From: Escherichia coli
GTDB lineage: Bacteria; Pseudomonadota; Gammaproteobacteria; Enterobacterales; Enterobacteriaceae
Length of the DNA: 64,000 nucleotides
NCBI RefSeq assembly: GCF_003019035.1
Contig: NZ_CP027447.1
Reading direction: 5' to 3' (one strand)
Both the position numbers and the translations under genes were made by a program. Below are positions 44,497 to 50,927 of this stretch, piece after piece; positions within the stretch are counted from its first letter, which is position 1, and each line of letters begins with the position of its first letter. The notes beneath the pieces were generated by a model, which saw nothing but the letters and a program-made list of their open reading frames with translations, did no database searches and was not told the origin of the DNA.

Positions 44497-44747
44497 TGAA
44501 AGAATACCGCTATTCCGGCCCGGCCAGCGGCGTCACGCTGTGGGACGGAACCGAAATCCTGCTCTGGCCGGGGAAGACGGTTTCCCTGCCGGAGGAGCAT
44601 GACTACGTGAAGGTACTGGTGGCGCTGAAGCATCTGACGCCGGTACCAGAAGATACTAAACCCGCCGTCACACCGGCAGTGCAGTCACCAAAGCGCAGAA
44701 GCAGCAGTGACAGCGAAGTGAAAACGGAGGACTCCCATGGCAGCTAA
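44493..44747 (+). CDS. Hypothetical small protein (84 aa)
   Basis: ORF overlapping both neighbours. Confidence 0.45.
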   Translation: MMKEYRYSGPASGVTLWDGTEILLWPGKTVSLPEEHDYVKVLVALKHLTPVPEDTKPAVTPAVQSPKRRSSSDSEVKTEDSHGS

Positions 44748-46164
44748 CTATCTGCATGGCGTCGAAACCATTGAGGTGGAAAACGGAGCCCGCCCGGTTA
44801 AAACGGTGAAATCTGCCGTTATTGGCCTGATTGGTACCGCCCCGATGGGGGATGTCAATACGCTGGTACAGTGCCTGTCTGAGAAAGACGCTGCGGCATT
44901 TGGCAGCCAGTTCACCGGCTTTACCATTCCGCAGGCGCTGGATGCGATTTATGACCATGGTGCAGGCACCGTTCTGGTCATTAACGTACTCGATCCGTCT
45001 GTGCATAAAACCGCTGTGGTCAGTGAGAATGTGTCGTTCGACAAGGCGACAGGCAGAGCCCGGCTGGCTAATCCGGTGGTCGCGCAGCTGGTACTGAAAC
45101 CGGACAGCGACGGTCAGCCTTATGTTGAAGGTCAGGACTACTCGCTTGATGCACAGACCGGGGTGATTACTAACCTGGGTAAAAGCATTGCTGCAGATGC
45201 AACGGTGAAGGCCAGCTATAACTATGCTGATCCGACCAAAGTCACCCCGGCTGATATCATCGGTACCGTTAACGCTGCAGGCAACCGTACCGGCATGAAG
45301 CTGCTTAACGACAGTTTTAACCTGTTTGGCTACTTCGCCAAAATCCTGATTGCTCCGGTATTCTGCACCCAGAATAGCGTCTCGGTTGAGCTTATCGCCA
45401 TGGCTGAGAAACTGGGAGCAGTAACCTATATTGATGCGCCGGTTGGTACCACTTTTGCGCAGGCTCTGGCGGGACGTGGCCCGGAAGGCACCATTAACTT
45501 TAATACCAGCTCTGACCGTGTCCGCCTGTGCTACCCGCATGTGAAGGTATATGACCCGGTGACGAACACGGAGCGTCTGGAGCCACTGAGCCAGCGTGCG
45601 GCGGGCCTGCGTGCCAAAGTCGACCTGGACAAAGGGTACTGGTGGTCATCCTCCAATCAGGAAATTCTGGGGATCACCGGCGTGGAGCGCCAGCTGTCGG
45701 CAATGATTGACGATCCGCAGAGCGAGGTGAACCTGCTTAACGAACAGGGGATCACCACGGTATTCAGCAGTTACGGCAGCGGCCTTCGTCTGTGGGGTAA
45801 CCGGACGGCAGCATGGCCAACGGTCACCCATATGCGTAACTTTGAGAACGTTCGCCGCACCGGTGATGTGATCAACGAGTCCATTCGTTACTTCAGCCAG
45901 CAGTACATCGACATGCCGATTACTCAGGCGCTGATTGATGCACTGACGGAGTCGGTCAACGCCTACGGTCGCAAAATGACTGGTGATGGTGCGGTACTGG
46001 GCTTCCGTTGCTGGTTTGATCCGGCCCGCAATCCGGAGACGGAGCTGGCCGCCGGGCACCTGTTGCTGAGCTACAAATATACGCCACCACCGCCGCTGGA
46101 GCGACTGACGTTTGAGACTGAAATCACCTCGGAATACCTGTTAACCCTGAAAGGGGGCAACTGA
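44737..46164 (+). CDS. Contractile tail sheath protein
   Basis: 475 aa directly upstream of the tube gene. Confidence 0.8.
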   Translation: MAANYLHGVETIEVENGARPVKTVKSAVIGLIGTAPMGDVNTLVQCLSEKDAAAFGSQFTGFTIPQALDAIYDHGAGTVLVINVLDPSVHKTAVVSENVSFDKATGRARLANPVVAQLVLKPDSDGQPYVEGQDYSLDAQTGVITNLGKSIAADATVKASYNYADPTKVTPADIIGTVNAAGNRTGMKLLNDSFNLFGYFAKILIAPVFCTQNSVSVELIAMAEKLGAVTYIDAPVGTTFAQALAGRGPEGTINFNTSSDRVRLCYPHVKVYDPVTNTERLEPLSQRAAGLRAKVDLDKGYWWSSSNQEILGITGVERQLSAMIDDPQSEVNLLNEQGITTVFSSYGSGLRLWGNRTAAWPTVTHMRNFENVRRTGDVINESIRYFSQQYIDMPITQALIDALTESVNAYGRKMTGDGAVLGFRCWFDPARNPETELAAGHLLLSYKYTPPPPLERLTFETEITSEYLLTLKGGN

Positions 46165-46685
46165 TGTCAAAGATTGAGATAAACCGAATCACGAATGCCA
46201 ACATCTATCTGGATGGTACTAACCTGCTGGGACGGGCTGAGGAAGTTAAACTCCCCGATGTCTCCATGATTATGCAGGAGCACAAGGCACTGGGGATGGT
46301 GGGTAAGGTGGAACTCCCGGCTGGTTTTGACAAACTGGAAGGCGAAATCAAATGGAACAGCTTTTACCGCGATGCGATGTTGTCTGCCGCGAACCCGTAC
46401 AGGTCGCTGGCGCTGCAGTGTCGCTCCAGCGTCCAGCGCTACAGCTCGCAGGGGCTGATCGACGAAATCCCGCTGGTCACCTTCCTGACAATTATGTTCA
46501 AGAAGAACCCGCTGGGGACGTTCAAACAGCACGAGAACGCCGAGTTCTCCAGTAGCTTCACCTGCACGTATATCAGACAGGTACTGGATGGTGAAGAGTT
46601 GCTGCAACTGGACTATCTGGCCAACATCTTCCGCGTCGGTGGCGTTGATCAACTGACTGACTATCGAATCAATATCGGGGGCTGA
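46164..46685 (+). CDS. Tail tube protein
   Basis: 173 aa following the sheath. Confidence 0.8.
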   Translation: MSKIEINRITNANIYLDGTNLLGRAEEVKLPDVSMIMQEHKALGMVGKVELPAGFDKLEGEIKWNSFYRDAMLSAANPYRSLALQCRSSVQRYSSQGLIDEIPLVTFLTIMFKKNPLGTFKQHENAEFSSSFTCTYIRQVLDGEELLQLDYLANIFRVGGVDQLTDYRINIGG

Positions 46686-46687
46686 CG

Positions 46688-46969
46688 GTGAGTGTTGAAC
46701 TGACTGACAAAGGAGGGCGATGTGCGTCACTGGGCATGTCAAATGGTACGTGGTTTACCCTCCTTGATATTCCGGGGGTGGAGACCCTCTTTAATACCCG
46801 TAAAACCAATGACCCGATTGACTGCACACGTTCAAAGGCCCGCAAACTGGCCGATTTGATTGAAGCATGGGAGCCGCCCGACCAGTGGTTCTCCGGCACC
46901 GGCAACTCTGAGGGAAAGGCGCTTCTCATCGCTTTCCTGCGTAACTGCAAGGGTTTTCGCACTTGCTGA
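46688..46969 (+). CDS. Hypothetical small protein (93 aa) followed by a terminator
   Basis: GTG-start ORF between tube and chaperone genes. Confidence 0.4.
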   Translation: MSVELTDKGGRCASLGMSNGTWFTLLDIPGVETLFNTRKTNDPIDCTRSKARKLADLIEAWEPPDQWFSGTGNSEGKALLIAFLRNCKGFRTC

Positions 46970-46976
46970 CATCACA

Positions 46977-47001
46977 GGGGCTCCGGCCCCTTCTTTTTAA
47001 T
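46977..47001 (+). terminator. Rho-independent terminator inside the tail operon
   Basis: GGGGC-TCCG-GCCCC hairpin followed by TTCTTTTTAAT. Confidence 0.65.
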
Positions 47002-47066
47002 CCCCTTTAATATCCGTCACGTCCACCGCCAGACATACTGCTCTGAATTTACAAAGGAGTATGATC

Positions 47067-47402
47067 ATGTCACAGACCCAGTCCGATACTTTTACGCTGT
47101 CTTATCCTTTCACCACTGCTGCAGGTACCAGAATTGAACAGATTGAACTGAAACGCCTGACAGTAAAAGACCTGAAGCAGGTGCGCAAAATCAACAAAGA
47201 CCCGACAGACTGGGACGAACCACTGATTGCCCGTAGCACCGGTATCCTCCCGGAAGACCTCGATAACATGGATCTTGCCGACTATATGGAGCTGCAGAAA
47301 CGATTTCAGAAAATCACTGGGCTGGGCAAGAGCGACAAAAACACTGATGCAGGCGCAGGGCCTGCTGGCGAGATGGTTCAGGTTTCAACCGGGGGAGATT
47401 GA
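47067..47402 (+). CDS. Tail assembly chaperone (frame-0 product)
   Basis: AGGAG RBS 7 nt upstream; position between tube and tape measure. Confidence 0.65.
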   Translation: MSQTQSDTFTLSYPFTTAAGTRIEQIELKRLTVKDLKQVRKINKDPTDWDEPLIARSTGILPEDLDNMDLADYMELQKRFQKITGLGKSDKNTDAGAGPAGEMVQVSTGGD

Positions 47403-47484
47403 TGCCCTCGATACTGACGATCTGGAGATGTGGCTGGAGCAGGCTGAAGAGCAAATCAAAAGCGAGTTCGGCGACAATCAGTAA
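47227..47484 (+). CDS. Overlapping ORF, probable frameshift extension of the tail chaperone
   Basis: ORF in the other frame overlapping the chaperone 3' half and extending 82 nt beyond its stop. Confidence 0.5.
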   Translation: MPVAPVSSRKTSITWILPTIWSCRNDFRKSLGWARATKTLMQAQGLLARWFRFQPGEIDALDTDDLEMWLEQAEEQIKSEFGDNQ

Positions 47485-47577
47485 CAACGTATCACTTAAC
47501 AGCCGCCAGTCGCGGCTGTTCTGCATGGGTTTCAGACACTTCCCTTCCGTTTTTTTTGCTTTCAGAGGATAGCCACC

Positions 47578-50043
47578 GTGGCCAGTGAATTTTCAGTCGG
47601 CGTCATTATTGGCGGCATTGTCGGGAGCAGCTTCCGCTCAGCCGTCAGTGGCACCCGACGCGCCCTTGATTCCCTTGGTGATACCTCCCGCCGTCTGCAG
47701 GAACGCCAGAATGCCTTAACCCGGGCAACAGAACGTTATGGTCAACTGGGTTCTTCCCGGATGCAGCATCTCAACAGCGAGTTGCTGCGGGTAAGCCGCA
47801 CCATGGAGCAAATTGAACGTCAGCAGCGCCGTCTGTCAGCAGTATCAGCCACCGGTGATGCGTTGAAGGCTAACCGCCTGGCGCTCTATGGTCAGGGTGC
47901 AGAAACCTATGCTATTGGCAGAACGCTGGGCGCACCGGTCATGGCCTCGGTTAAACAATATGCCTCGTTTGAATCACAGTTGCGGGATATCAGTGTCACA
48001 GGAGACCTGGATGCAAAACAGGAACGTGCAATTGGCCAGGCTATCAGACAGGCCTCGCTGAAGGTTAACCAACTGCAGGAGTCTCTGTTAGGGGGAGTCG
48101 GACAATTAGTTGCTGATGGTATGGCCCCCGAACGGGCAGCAACGTTTGCAGAGATGCTTGGAAAGACCGCTACAGCAACCAAAGCCGATATGACCGACCT
48201 TGCCAAAATGACTTATGCCTTCAGCGATGCACTCAGAATCACTGATGCGAAAGAACTTGAACAGGCGTTTGGTATTGCGGCAACAGGAGCCAAACTTGGG
48301 TCATTTGAGCTGAAGGATATGGCAAAAGCATTACCCGGTATGGCTAAAGCCTTCGCTGCTCGTGGTATTTATGGAAAAGATGCGATTACCCAGATTGTTG
48401 CCAGTCTGGAGGTCGGTAAAGGTAGTGGCTCTGCAGAGGAAGCGGTCACCAATATGTCCAACTGGCTGGCAGCAATGGGCCGCGGAGATACCATCCAGAA
48501 ATATGCTAAAGCCGGGGTGGATTACCAGGGGTCAATGCAGAATTACGTCGCTCAGGGTTTTTCGCAGTACGAAGCTTCACTGATGATTGCCAACCGTTTT
48601 ATCGACAGTAAAGGCAAAGCGTTCTTGCAGCAATGGAAAGCTGCAGGAGCAAGAGGCGATCAGGAAGGTCAGCAGAAACTCATGGAGTCATTTGGTCTGG
48701 CTGAGGTCTTTACCGATATTCAGACTGTCAACCATTTACTGTCAATGCGACAGGGCTGGGATAAATACCTTTCCAGTAAGCAGGAAATGAATGCTCCGGC
48801 TGCAATGTCTACCCTGGATAAGGATGCTGCAAAGCAGAATGATACGCTTGAAGGTCGCTGGCGCAGAATGCAGATCGGCTTTAATGATTCTGCTATCAGC
48901 ATCGGGCAATCCTTGCGTCCGGCTTTGCTCCAGTTGGGTGAAACATTTATTCCTTTAATGGACAGCGTCGGCAAATGGATAGCGGCAAATCCGCAGCTCG
49001 TCAGCAGCACCATAAAGGTTGTGGGCGCATTACTCGCTTTCAGGATGGCCACTATCGGTCTCAAGTTTGGGCTGAATCTCCTTATTTCCCCCTTTGTAAG
49101 CGTCTGGAAAAATGCTGTTTTACTTCGGGCCAACTGGCTTCGTCTGATGCTCGCACTGGGGGAAGGCGGTAAACTCCGCTGGCTGGTGACAGGCTTTGGT
49201 GCCGTCGCCAGAGGAGCCAGAACACTGGGGGGTGTGCTCTCAGGGGGGCTGGTTCGCGGAATTATGAGCGCCGGGCGTGCCGTTCTCTGGATTGGCCGGG
49301 CGCTGATGATGAATCCCATCGGTCTCGCTATCACCGCCGTCGCGGCAGCAGCTTACCTTATCTACCGCAACTGGGGCGCGGTCAGTAGCTGGTTTAAACA
49401 GCGCTGGGCTGACATTCAGGAAGCCTTTAACGGCGGTATCGCGGGAATTGGTAAACTGCTGGTTAACTGGTCTCCGGCAGGTCTGCTTTATAAAGCCTTT
49501 GCGGCTGCGCTGAAATATCTCGGCGTTGATTTGCCGGCGAAATTCACCGACTTCGGTGGTCATCTTATTGACGGGCTGATAAATGGCATCAGAAACAAAT
49601 GGGAGTCACTGAAAACCAGCATAACCGGAATGGGTGACAGCATCAGTGACTGGTTCAGCGAAAAGCTGGGCATCCATTCACCGAGTCGCGTGTTTATAGG
49701 CTTTGGTGACAATATCGCGCAGGGTGCCGCCATTGGCCTGCAACGGACCACTCCGCTTGCTGCACTGGCCGGGCAGCGCCTGGCCGCTGAAATGACACCG
49801 GATGTTCCCCGTATCCCGTCGCCGGAAATCATGGCTGCCGGATATTCAGGCCGTGGCGCAACGGCAACCGGCGGTGGAGCGTCTGGCGGTATCCAGGTCA
49901 GCTTTAATCCTCAGTTTTTCCTCAATGGTAAGGAAACCGCAGCGCCTGCCGGGCTGACTGGTGCCCTGAATATGAGCCTGCATGAGCTGGAAAAAATGCT
50001 GGAGCGTCTGCTGGCTCAGAAACAACGTAAGGAGTACAGCTGA
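47578..50043 (+). CDS. Tail tape measure protein
   Basis: 821 aa, helical, Ala/Gly-rich with hydrophobic central segments; GTG start with AGAGGA RBS. Confidence 0.85.
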   Translation: MASEFSVGVIIGGIVGSSFRSAVSGTRRALDSLGDTSRRLQERQNALTRATERYGQLGSSRMQHLNSELLRVSRTMEQIERQQRRLSAVSATGDALKANRLALYGQGAETYAIGRTLGAPVMASVKQYASFESQLRDISVTGDLDAKQERAIGQAIRQASLKVNQLQESLLGGVGQLVADGMAPERAATFAEMLGKTATATKADMTDLAKMTYAFSDALRITDAKELEQAFGIAATGAKLGSFELKDMAKALPGMAKAFAARGIYGKDAITQIVASLEVGKGSGSAEEAVTNMSNWLAAMGRGDTIQKYAKAGVDYQGSMQNYVAQGFSQYEASLMIANRFIDSKGKAFLQQWKAAGARGDQEGQQKLMESFGLAEVFTDIQTVNHLLSMRQGWDKYLSSKQEMNAPAAMSTLDKDAAKQNDTLEGRWRRMQIGFNDSAISIGQSLRPALLQLGETFIPLMDSVGKWIAANPQLVSSTIKVVGALLAFRMATIGLKFGLNLLISPFVSVWKNAVLLRANWLRLMLALGEGGKLRWLVTGFGAVARGARTLGGVLSGGLVRGIMSAGRAVLWIGRALMMNPIGLAITAVAAAAYLIYRNWGAVSSWFKQRWADIQEAFNGGIAGIGKLLVNWSPAGLLYKAFAAALKYLGVDLPAKFTDFGGHLIDGLINGIRNKWESLKTSITGMGDSISDWFSEKLGIHSPSRVFIGFGDNIAQGAAIGLQRTTPLAALAGQRLAAEMTPDVPRIPSPEIMAAGYSGRGATATGGGASGGIQVSFNPQFFLNGKETAAPAGLTGALNMSLHELEKMLERLLAQKQRKEYS

Positions 50044-50927
50044 TGTTTGCCGTACTGGGTGATATTGAGTTTGAACTGATTACCTACTGGGACGGCTTCG
50101 AGGCCACGTTTGGCGTCGATTATGCGGAGCATGCCCGCATCGAGGGTAAACCCGGCCTGCAGTTCGTCGGCGACAGGCTGGACGAAATCCAGATAAGCCT
50201 GGTCTTCCATCAGCATTATTGTGTGCCCGACGTGGAGCTGGCGAGAGTGCGAACAGCCATGAAGGCCCATCAGGCACTGGCGCTGGTCTTCGGCAACGGT
50301 GACTATCGCGGCTGGTTCGTGATTACCGATGTGACCGCAACCAGCGAGCAGACAGACAGCACCGGTAACGTGCTGGCTGTCAGTGCCACCGTGTCTCTCC
50401 GGGAATACACCGGTGACCCGAAAAATCCTCTGCAACCGCCGGCAATACGCAGGCAGGTTCCCGGTGCCGGGGCCGTATCTGGTGCTGTTCCATCGCCTTC
50501 CGGGGTGGCGCAGTTCGTCCGTAACGGCGTCAACTATGCGAAACAGGCGCAGTCTGTACTCCAGACCACCATCAGTGCCGTTCGGGTGGCACAGAAAATG
50601 AAGGGTAACCCTGTTGTCGCGCTGACCCGTGTACCGGGACTGATGAGCGGACTGGGTAATATATCCGTGGCTCTGGGGAAAAGTGTTCCGGCGTTTAATG
50701 CACTCTCTGAATCCATGCCCGATGCCATCAGTCTGGCCAGAACAGCCAGTGAGGCAGCCACGTATGTACAGCAGGCGCAGTCGGCGCTGAGTGGTGTGGA
50801 CAAAAGAAATATTGCAGGTGCTCTGGATACCGTTTCCGGGCAGCTTAACGCCGCCGGCACAGCATTCAACCGCATGTCTCCGGGATTAAGTGCAATGGCC
50901 GCCAGAATACTGACGAGGAGTGTGTGA
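50043..50927 (+). CDS. Tail protein (P2 gpU / Mu gpN-like, by position)
   Basis: 294 aa immediately after the tape measure. Confidence 0.5.
   Translation: MFAVLGDIEFELITYWDGFEATFGVDYAEHARIEGKPGLQFVGDRLDEIQISLVFHQHYCVPDVELARVRTAMKAHQALALVFGNGDYRGWFVITDVTATSEQTDSTGNVLAVSATVSLREYTGDPKNPLQPPAIRRQVPGAGAVSGAVPSPSGVAQFVRNGVNYAKQAQSVLQTTISAVRVAQKMKGNPVVALTRVPGLMSGLGNISVALGKSVPAFNALSESMPDAISLARTASEAATYVQQAQSALSGVDKRNIAGALDTVSGQLNAAGTAFNRMSPGLSAMAARILTRSV

Follow-up and report, generated by a model that had tools for sequence, protein, structure and literature searches.

Results

Organization of the prophage tail module

The window, that is, the whole 64,000-nucleotide stretch of Escherichia coli contig NZ_CP027447.1 analysed here, contains a P2-type contractile-tail module that spans 44.7 to 52.3 kb and has the gene order FI-FII-E-T-U-(X)-D. 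The sheath gene (44737-46164) is followed by the tail tube gene (46164-46685, plus strand; PF04985, E=2.9e-53), a 93-aa ORF (46688-46969), the chaperone ORF and the tape-measure gene (47578-50043, plus strand; PF10145, E=8e-16; phrog_28, E=2.3e-119), and homologues of gpU, gpX and gpD are part of the same module. The chaperone ORF, a gpE analogue of 111 aa whose frame is taken as frame 0 (47067..47402, plus strand), lies between the tube and tape-measure genes, where the initial annotation had placed it; the Pfam matches of its neighbours confirmed this position, with the 93-aa ORF as one extra reading frame between tube and chaperone. Although the chaperone ORF was listed as 47061..47402 on the plus strand, its second ATG, at 47067, is the start in identical RefSeq homologues, which are labelled 'phage tail assembly protein'. 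A Shine-Dalgarno sequence, AAGGAG, can be read 7 nt 5' of this ATG (47054..47059, plus strand) and is kept as ACAGGAG or AAAGGAG across the aligned relatives. The ORF matches PF10109 Phage_TAC_7 ('E, or 41 or 14') with E=4.6e-22 and 78 bits against a cutoff of 25.

The second ORF (47227..47484) overlaps the chaperone ORF by 176 nt in a different frame, as had been noted initially, and matches phrog_8286 (E=1e-31); its last 45 codons are sometimes a separate RefSeq 'GpE family phage tail protein'. A search of NCBIfam matched neither of the overlapping ORFs. Because the first ORF matches Phage_TAC_7 and the second phrog_8286, the overlap is not a product of chance. The 1.6 kb around the locus is 88-90% identical to Escherichia phage PhiKM and Klebsiella phage KP12; PhiKM, at 90% identity, is classified in Bcepmuvirus. 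A survey of 5,426 complete E. coli genomes found related sequence in 638 (~12%), and the hosts of the BcepMu-like family include E. coli, Salmonella, Klebsiella, Ralstonia, Burkholderia and Pseudomonas. The locus is the tail-assembly-chaperone pair of a BcepMu-like, P2-tailed prophage.

Several further features of the module were observed. The 93-aa ORF matches DUF7739 weakly (E=1.7e-5) and phrog_1239, a family without assigned function (E=2.8e-47); as no gene is annotated at its position in BcepMu, the Salmonella prophage, Bise or P2, it may be a moron or accessory gene. A strong terminator-like hairpin (46976-47000; AGGGGC TCCG GCCCCT, then TCTTTTTAAT) separates it from the chaperone gene and could make transcription of the chaperone and tape-measure genes weaker than that of the sheath and tube genes. 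Another hairpin, CAGCCGC-(5 nt)-GCGGCTG at 47500-47518, lies 16 nt 3' of the stop codon of the second ORF and has no T-run after it; its stem is identical in PhiKM, KP12 and E. coli prophages, with CAGTC, CCCTC or CAGTA as the loop. Further downstream, the gpU homologue (50043-50927) is 294 aa long, and the Pfam GpU domain covers residues 6-123 only; the C-terminal ~170 residues are rich in Ala, Ser and Gly and match no family.

Frame relation of the overlapping ORFs

Related loci were collected from IMG/VR (54 + 80 + 17 + 15), together with phage and E. coli records. They gave 82 unique haplotypes with the chaperone motif and 14 more Ralstonia-type loci, ~96 in all, from enterics, Ralstonia, Burkholderia and Pseudomonas. 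The 62 enteric haplotypes formed the set for the codon table and for the counts of synonymous variation, and these sequences are not phylogenetically independent.

A programmed -1 frameshift at an A-run or a G-run in the overlap had initially been proposed, and two considerations speak for it: the analogy with lambda G/GT and P2 E/E+E', the latter annotated as -1, and the presence of homopolymer runs in the overlap. However, frame arithmetic refutes it, because 47067 mod 3 = 0 and 47227 mod 3 = 1, which puts the second ORF in the +1 frame (equivalent to -2); therefore, ribosomes could enter it only by shifting +1 or -2, and a -1 shift cannot lead there. The conserved extension stands in +1 in every relative examined (the Salmonella prophage, Ralstonia phage YO107_2, Pseudomonas phage Bise and BcepMu), as well as in 37 further enteric loci and in BcepMu-like, Bise-like and Ralstonia-type loci, whereas the relation is -1 in P2 and in one Pasteurella P2-like phage. 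The true -1 frame in the window (ORF 47399-47572) showed no coding signature and no selection, and 3' of 47484 it crosses divergent intergenic sequence with indels; no X_XXY_YYZ heptamer was found in the overlap. A -1 shift at either run can thus be virtually dismissed. Of the proposed likeness to the P2 E/E+E' pair, the homology stands, with a TAC_7 domain plus a GpE-type extension, but the direction of the shift does not.

Protein-level selection on the downstream frame

The putative E' extension comprises 58 codons and a TAA stop (47482-84) in the +1 frame (47308..47484, plus strand), of which the part from 47308 to ~47327 is dual-coding and shared with frame 0. The pattern of variation within the overlap indicates where each frame is constrained. 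All 62 enteric haplotypes keep a +1-frame Trp at 47323-25, and the frame-0 codon at this position encodes Leu, Met or Val, always as NTG, followed by Gly, Ala, Val or Asp, always as GNN. To the 5' side of ~47320, variation is synonymous in frame 0; at 47316-18, for example, the Thr codon alternates between ACT, ACG and ACA, which would read as Leu, Arg or Gln in +1. To the 3' side, from 47343, +1-synonymous variation is abundant (four codons each for Leu, Ala and Pro, and six for Arg), and the same changes alter or terminate the frame-0 amino acid sequence. The synonymous/non-synonymous pattern therefore changes frame around 47323-47343, well 5' of the frame-0 stop. Across the 62 enteric haplotypes, the overlapping downstream ORF is under protein-level selection and has no conserved start of its own.

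The frame-0 chaperone is conserved as a protein for its first ~80-87 codons only, and its stop codons fall, among relatives, at codons 27/28, 34, 42, 47, 49 and 53 after the EDLD motif. Because the place of the stop varies in this way, the C-terminal tail of the chaperone after ~47328 appears to be dispensable. Very variable stops were recorded in loci L085 and L087 (of the L037 type), L155, L156 and L131 and in Bise-like loci, the earliest lying 10 codons past the invariant Phe described below.

The core of the extension, LARWFRFQPGEIDALDTDDLEMWLEQAEEQIKS (47365..47463, plus strand), resembles the GpE (P2 E')-type domain. PF06528 matched the extension of the window alone with E=0.003-0.011, which is below the Pfam cutoff, and a conceptual fusion with E=0.0029; it matched 13 of 19 diverse extensions of the family individually (best 8e-8). 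When a profile of these 19 +1-frame extensions was aligned with P2 E' by hhalign, the probability was 93.8% (E=1.7e-7). Judged by these profile comparisons, the extension is homologous to P2 E'.

If no frameshift took place, E' would be a separate small protein made from an internal start, namely ATG 47347 here and GTG, ATG or TTG elsewhere. RefSeq/PGAP does give a separate 45-aa 'GpE family phage tail protein' beginning at this ATG (47347..47349, plus strand), BcepMu gp42 is likewise annotated from an internal ATG, and some start-like codon exists in the +1 frame of most lineages. However, the codon at 47347 is ATG in 20/62, TGG in 20/62 and ACG in 16/62 haplotypes, with ACG in the commonest E. 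coli type (ST131/PhiKM), and no Shine-Dalgarno sequence precedes this or any other candidate start. Moreover, conservation in the +1 frame reaches 5' of every candidate start (Trp 47323-25 and Leu 47344-46), and the homologous P2 product is a fusion. We therefore regard internal initiation as unlikely. With no start codon conserved in the downstream frame, programmed frameshifting is the best explanation of the locus, and the comparative pattern makes it very probable that a +1 or -2 recoding event joins the two frames.

A conserved UUU_C within the shift zone

The stop codons of the two frames leave 47296-47336 as the zone in which the shift can take place. The last +1-frame stop lies at least 4 codons 5' of an invariant Phe codon and the earliest frame-0 stop 10-11 codons 3' of it in all haplotypes; in all 96 haplotypes the open +1 frame begins 4 or more codons 5' of TTT_C. 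At this Phe, TTT followed by C (47304..47307, plus strand) is the sole conserved slippery motif inside the zone, and we propose it as a candidate +1 shift site. It is present in 82/82 unique haplotypes and in the 14 Ralstonia-type loci, sequences that are not phylogenetically independent, in several codon contexts: CGA TTT CAG/CAA in enterics, CGA TTT CTG in the Ralstonia type, TCC/GCC/TCT TTT CGC/CGT in the GC-rich BcepMu group and GCA/GCG/AAA TTT CAA/CAG in the Bise group.

TTT_C is conserved more strictly than the protein sequence demands. In the GC-rich groups (Burkholderia and Pseudomonas relatives), TTT is the less used Phe codon, accounting for no more than ~20%, and in the tail genes of the window itself TTT is followed by C at 1 of 42 TTT codons. 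Among 62 enteric haplotypes, the nucleotide block CAG AAA CGA TTT CA (47295..47308, plus strand) is unique within the chaperone gene in showing no synonymous variation. Among 32 conserved degenerate codons of the chaperone, heterozygosity is 0-0.03 only at Q14, K15, R16 and F17 (47295-47306), and at the others it is at least 0.12, with a median of 0.43. The Arg codon 5' of the Phe is CGA in 62/62 enteric haplotypes, whereas in the tail genes nearby only 6 of 119 Arg codons are CGA. Because the Phe residue itself never varies, common descent could account for some of the TTT conservation. Taken together, these comparisons suggest that the shift probably occurs at UUU_C 47304-07, the most likely position in the zone.

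Stimulatory elements were sought around the site. RNAalifold gave an energy of ~0 on 62 haplotypes, with no conserved RNA structure, the locus had no match in Rfam, and no Shine-Dalgarno-like element was found at prfB-type spacing. GGAG at 47288-91, 12 nt upstream, was considered as a Shine-Dalgarno-like stimulator and rejected; relatives do not conserve it. A minus-strand promoter-like match overlapping TTTCAG was also set aside, its score of 9/12 being within chance expectation. The distance from the site to the frame-0 stop is 95 nt, which is longer than usual for tail-chaperone frameshift systems.

Conservation of the +1 frame is weak from 47308 to 47322, and at 47316-18 selection acts clearly on frame 0; the data would therefore fit a shift a few codons downstream as well. 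One such site within 47308-47325 would be GGG_C at 47319-22 (GGG_A in the ST131/PhiKM type). Frame 0 remains better conserved than +1 up to ~47327, GGG_A would allow good re-pairing of tRNA-Gly(UCC), and the site aligns with a P2-like slip position. However, the GGG codon is found in only 43/62 enteric haplotypes, the rest having AGC, AGT, ACC or others, and is absent from Salmonella-type, Ralstonia-type, BcepMu-type and Bise-type relatives; nor is it under synonymous constraint, as the preceding Thr codon varies freely. A shift at this position is distinctly unlikely.

Homopolymer runs as alternative slip sites

Both runs that had been named as candidate slip sites exist, slightly displaced from the positions first given: the A-run GACAAAAACA occupies 47334-47343 rather than 47331-40, with its five A at 47337-41, and the G-run CCGGGGGAG occupies 47389-47397 rather than 47390-98, with its five G at 47391-95 (both on the plus strand). 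Neither was conserved in comparisons with related phages that covered successively 40, 62 and 82 haplotypes.

A lineage-specific slip on the A5 run, either +1 (AAA to AAA) or -2 (AAC to AAA), with other lineages using other sites, would yield ...GKSDK/TLMQAQGLLARWF... at the junction. Such a slip would re-pair perfectly, directly 5' of the strongly conserved part of E'; the slip sites of the tail-chaperone pair often differ between phages, and one database protein, P0001, has exactly this junction. However, the frame-0 codon at 47337-39 is AAA in only 9/62 enteric haplotypes, with GAA, CAG, ACA or GCA in others and TAG in 2, and the commonest E. coli type reads AAC CAG GGC. A slip here would also leave unexplained the invariant +1 Trp at 47323-25, which lies upstream, and the constrained block 47295-47308. 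We therefore consider it improbable that the run is the primary site; from these sequence comparisons, 47337..47341 could be at most a lineage-specific secondary slip site. As 47308-47322 is dominated by frame-0 constraint, slips at the A5 run and at GGG_C nevertheless keep some probability.

The G5 run lies directly 5' of GAT TGA (stop 47400-02) and, read in +1, specifies Pro-Gly-Glu of the E' core. A Mu-like -2 (or +1) shift on GGG GGA (47391-96) would be in keeping with phage Mu, whose extension is also in the +1 frame with a G5 run just 5' of the end of gp41, and to whose decoding -2 frameshifting is attributed in PMC5009743. Re-pairing from GGA to GGG after a -2 slip is possible, and database 'fusion' proteins with the junction ...VSAG/EIDALD exist. 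However, a frame-0 stop precedes the run in 21/62 enteric haplotypes (TAG at 47379-81 in 19/62 and at 47337-39 in 2/62). Four haplotypes carry CCT-GGGG or CCA-GGGG in place of the intact run, its CCG also changes to CCC, and it is absent in the Salmonella type (CCC AGT GAA); these changes keep Pro in +1 but turn the frame-0 Gly into Trp or Arg. A fusion made at this point would moreover be without the best-conserved segment of the GpE domain, LLARWFRFQP, which lies upstream of the run. The database fusions cited in its favour are probably indel errors, as they are located at homopolymers and come mostly from raw-read assemblies, and we consider a shift at the G5 run very improbable.

Public protein sets hold 138-aa 'fused' chaperones (P0001-P0012) with junctions at A5, G3, G4 and G5, some of them with a second frame error. 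Because there are four different homopolymer junctions in mostly read-level assemblies, these proteins are probably the result of indel errors, and such in-frame fusions were rejected as a 'Rosetta stone' for the natural site, for which they are uninformative.

Discussion

Our preferred reading of the locus is a +1 shift at the invariant UUU_C. Normal decoding of 47067-47402 would give the 111-aa chaperone, the gpE analogue, and a minority of ribosomes would slip +1 and read the overlapping frame to 47484, giving a predicted 138-aa fusion, the analogue of gpE+E'. The slip point would be the invariant Phe codon (47304-47307) at the end of the TAC_7 domain. The anticodon of tRNA-Phe, GAA, recognizes UUU through wobble but forms Watson-Crick pairs with UUC; a slip from UUU to UUC would therefore be favourable, with peptidyl-tRNA-Phe moving from a G:U wobble on UUU to perfect re-pairing on the overlapping UUC, and decoding would resume in the +1 frame at AGA (47308). 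The 0-frame A-site codon is CAG, CAA, CTG or CGC among relatives, none of them rare, and the efficiency of the shift may therefore be very low. The invariant rare CGA just upstream, which would occupy the E site during the shift, may help, although its position is only suggestive of a stimulatory role. By analogy with lambda G/GT, for which this role has been demonstrated, the C-terminal GpE-type domain would be expected to link the tape-measure/chaperone complex to tube polymerization. If +1 reading starts 5' of 47314, a tryptic peptide, SLGWAR, and a Glu-C peptide, LQKRFRKSLGWARATKTLMQAQGLLARWFRFQPGE, are predicted.

The closest comparison is with P2, in which an experimentally established -1 shift at GGT TTT TTG gives the 91- and 142-aa products of E and E+E' (Lynch et al. 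2010, PMC3091744). Both systems combine a TAC_7 N-terminus with a GpE-type extension, lie between tube and tape measure in an FI-FII-E-T-U-(X)-D module and have products of comparable size, predicted at 111 and 138 aa here versus 91 and 142 aa in P2. The two sites lie at the end of TAC_7, 3-4 codons apart (Pfam TAC_7 profile positions ~77-78 for the P2 site and ~74 for the Phe of the window), and both include a Phe UUU codon; the junction is separated from the aligned E' core by 15 aa here and by 17 aa in P2, and downstream RNA structure was seen in neither locus. In contrast, the shift would be +1 on the tetranucleotide UUU_C rather than -1 on the heptamer T_TTT_TTG, the frame-0 ORF continues for ~32 codons past the site rather than 6, and sequence identity is low, with BLASTP marginal. 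A search for diverse relatives of P2 gpE, for -1-type codon usage, returned only P2 copies with 99-100% identity.

Other recoding systems share particular features with the locus. Tailed phages use -1, -2 or +1 shifts for the tail-chaperone pair, the shift of Mu being -2, according to Atkins et al. (2016, PMC5009743). Mu gp41 resembles the present chaperone in having its extension in the +1/-2 frame, a transposable-phage context and a G5 run near the end of the first ORF; however, it matches PF23746 (Gp41_Mu) and its extension is not GpE-like, whereas the chaperone of the window matches PF10109 only and the G-run of its family is not conserved and lies 3' of frame-0 stops in many relatives. 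Lambda G/GT is alike in position, in the logic of an abundant short chaperone and a rare fusion and in presumed function, but shows no sequence similarity, and it shifts -1 at G_GGA_AAG in a siphovirus tail. At the level of the site itself, UUU_Y in E. coli is described in Atkins et al. (2016, PMC5009743) as prone to +1 shifting, and the same source describes influenza A PA-X as a +1 shift in UCC_UUU_CGU without evident stimulators, to which the 5' codon contributes. The candidate site shares with these a 0-frame UUU followed by a pyrimidine, perfect re-pairing of tRNA-Phe in +1, a lack of obvious stimulators and a conserved identity of the 5' (E-site) codon, and TCC TTT CGC of BcepMu is almost the influenza cassette. 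It differs in that the known cases lie in unrelated genes, that the 5' codon is CGA in enterics and the Ralstonia type, and that shifting at it is predicted from sequence. The locus is thus a variant of the well-known tail-chaperone recoding system and not a new kind.

The annotation of relatives was also compared. In the BcepMu record (AY539836, 3712-4473), GenBank names gp42/gp43 as a lambda G/GT-like slippage pair. Homology instead identifies gp41, a TAC_7 protein, as the BcepMu chaperone and gp42 as the E' extension in its +1 frame, so that the reference annotation is probably wrong; gp43 seems to be a spurious ORF in GC-rich sequence. Across near-identical E. coli prophages (L004-L007), PGAP is inconsistent, giving either a separate 45-aa gene or nothing, and no ribosomal-slippage join. 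If the proposed shift is true, both the RefSeq two-gene annotation and the BcepMu gp42/gp43 G/GT pair are wrong, and the annotation of hundreds of E. coli prophages, in which E' is missing or a separate 45-aa gene, would be corrected. Frameshift finders limited to -1 heptamers or homopolymer runs will misplace a site of the UUU_C type, and a naive search for natural fusions would be misled by the homopolymer-junction fusions in databases.

To our knowledge, characterized tail-chaperone frameshifts are nearly all -1 shifts at heptamers and constitute a textbook case of recoding. Our comparisons raise the evenly balanced prospect that a large family of transposable prophages with P2-type tails would produce its counterpart of gpE+E' through a +1 shift, absent from annotations, at a minimal, conserved (CGA_)UUU_C that has no stimulatory structure; the position of recoding would then have been kept at the Phe codon and its direction switched, from -1 in P2 to +1 here. 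If true, this would provide a clean natural bacterial case of stimulator-free +1 frameshifting, with tail assembly as a genetic read-out and the homologous -1 site of P2 as a built-in comparison.
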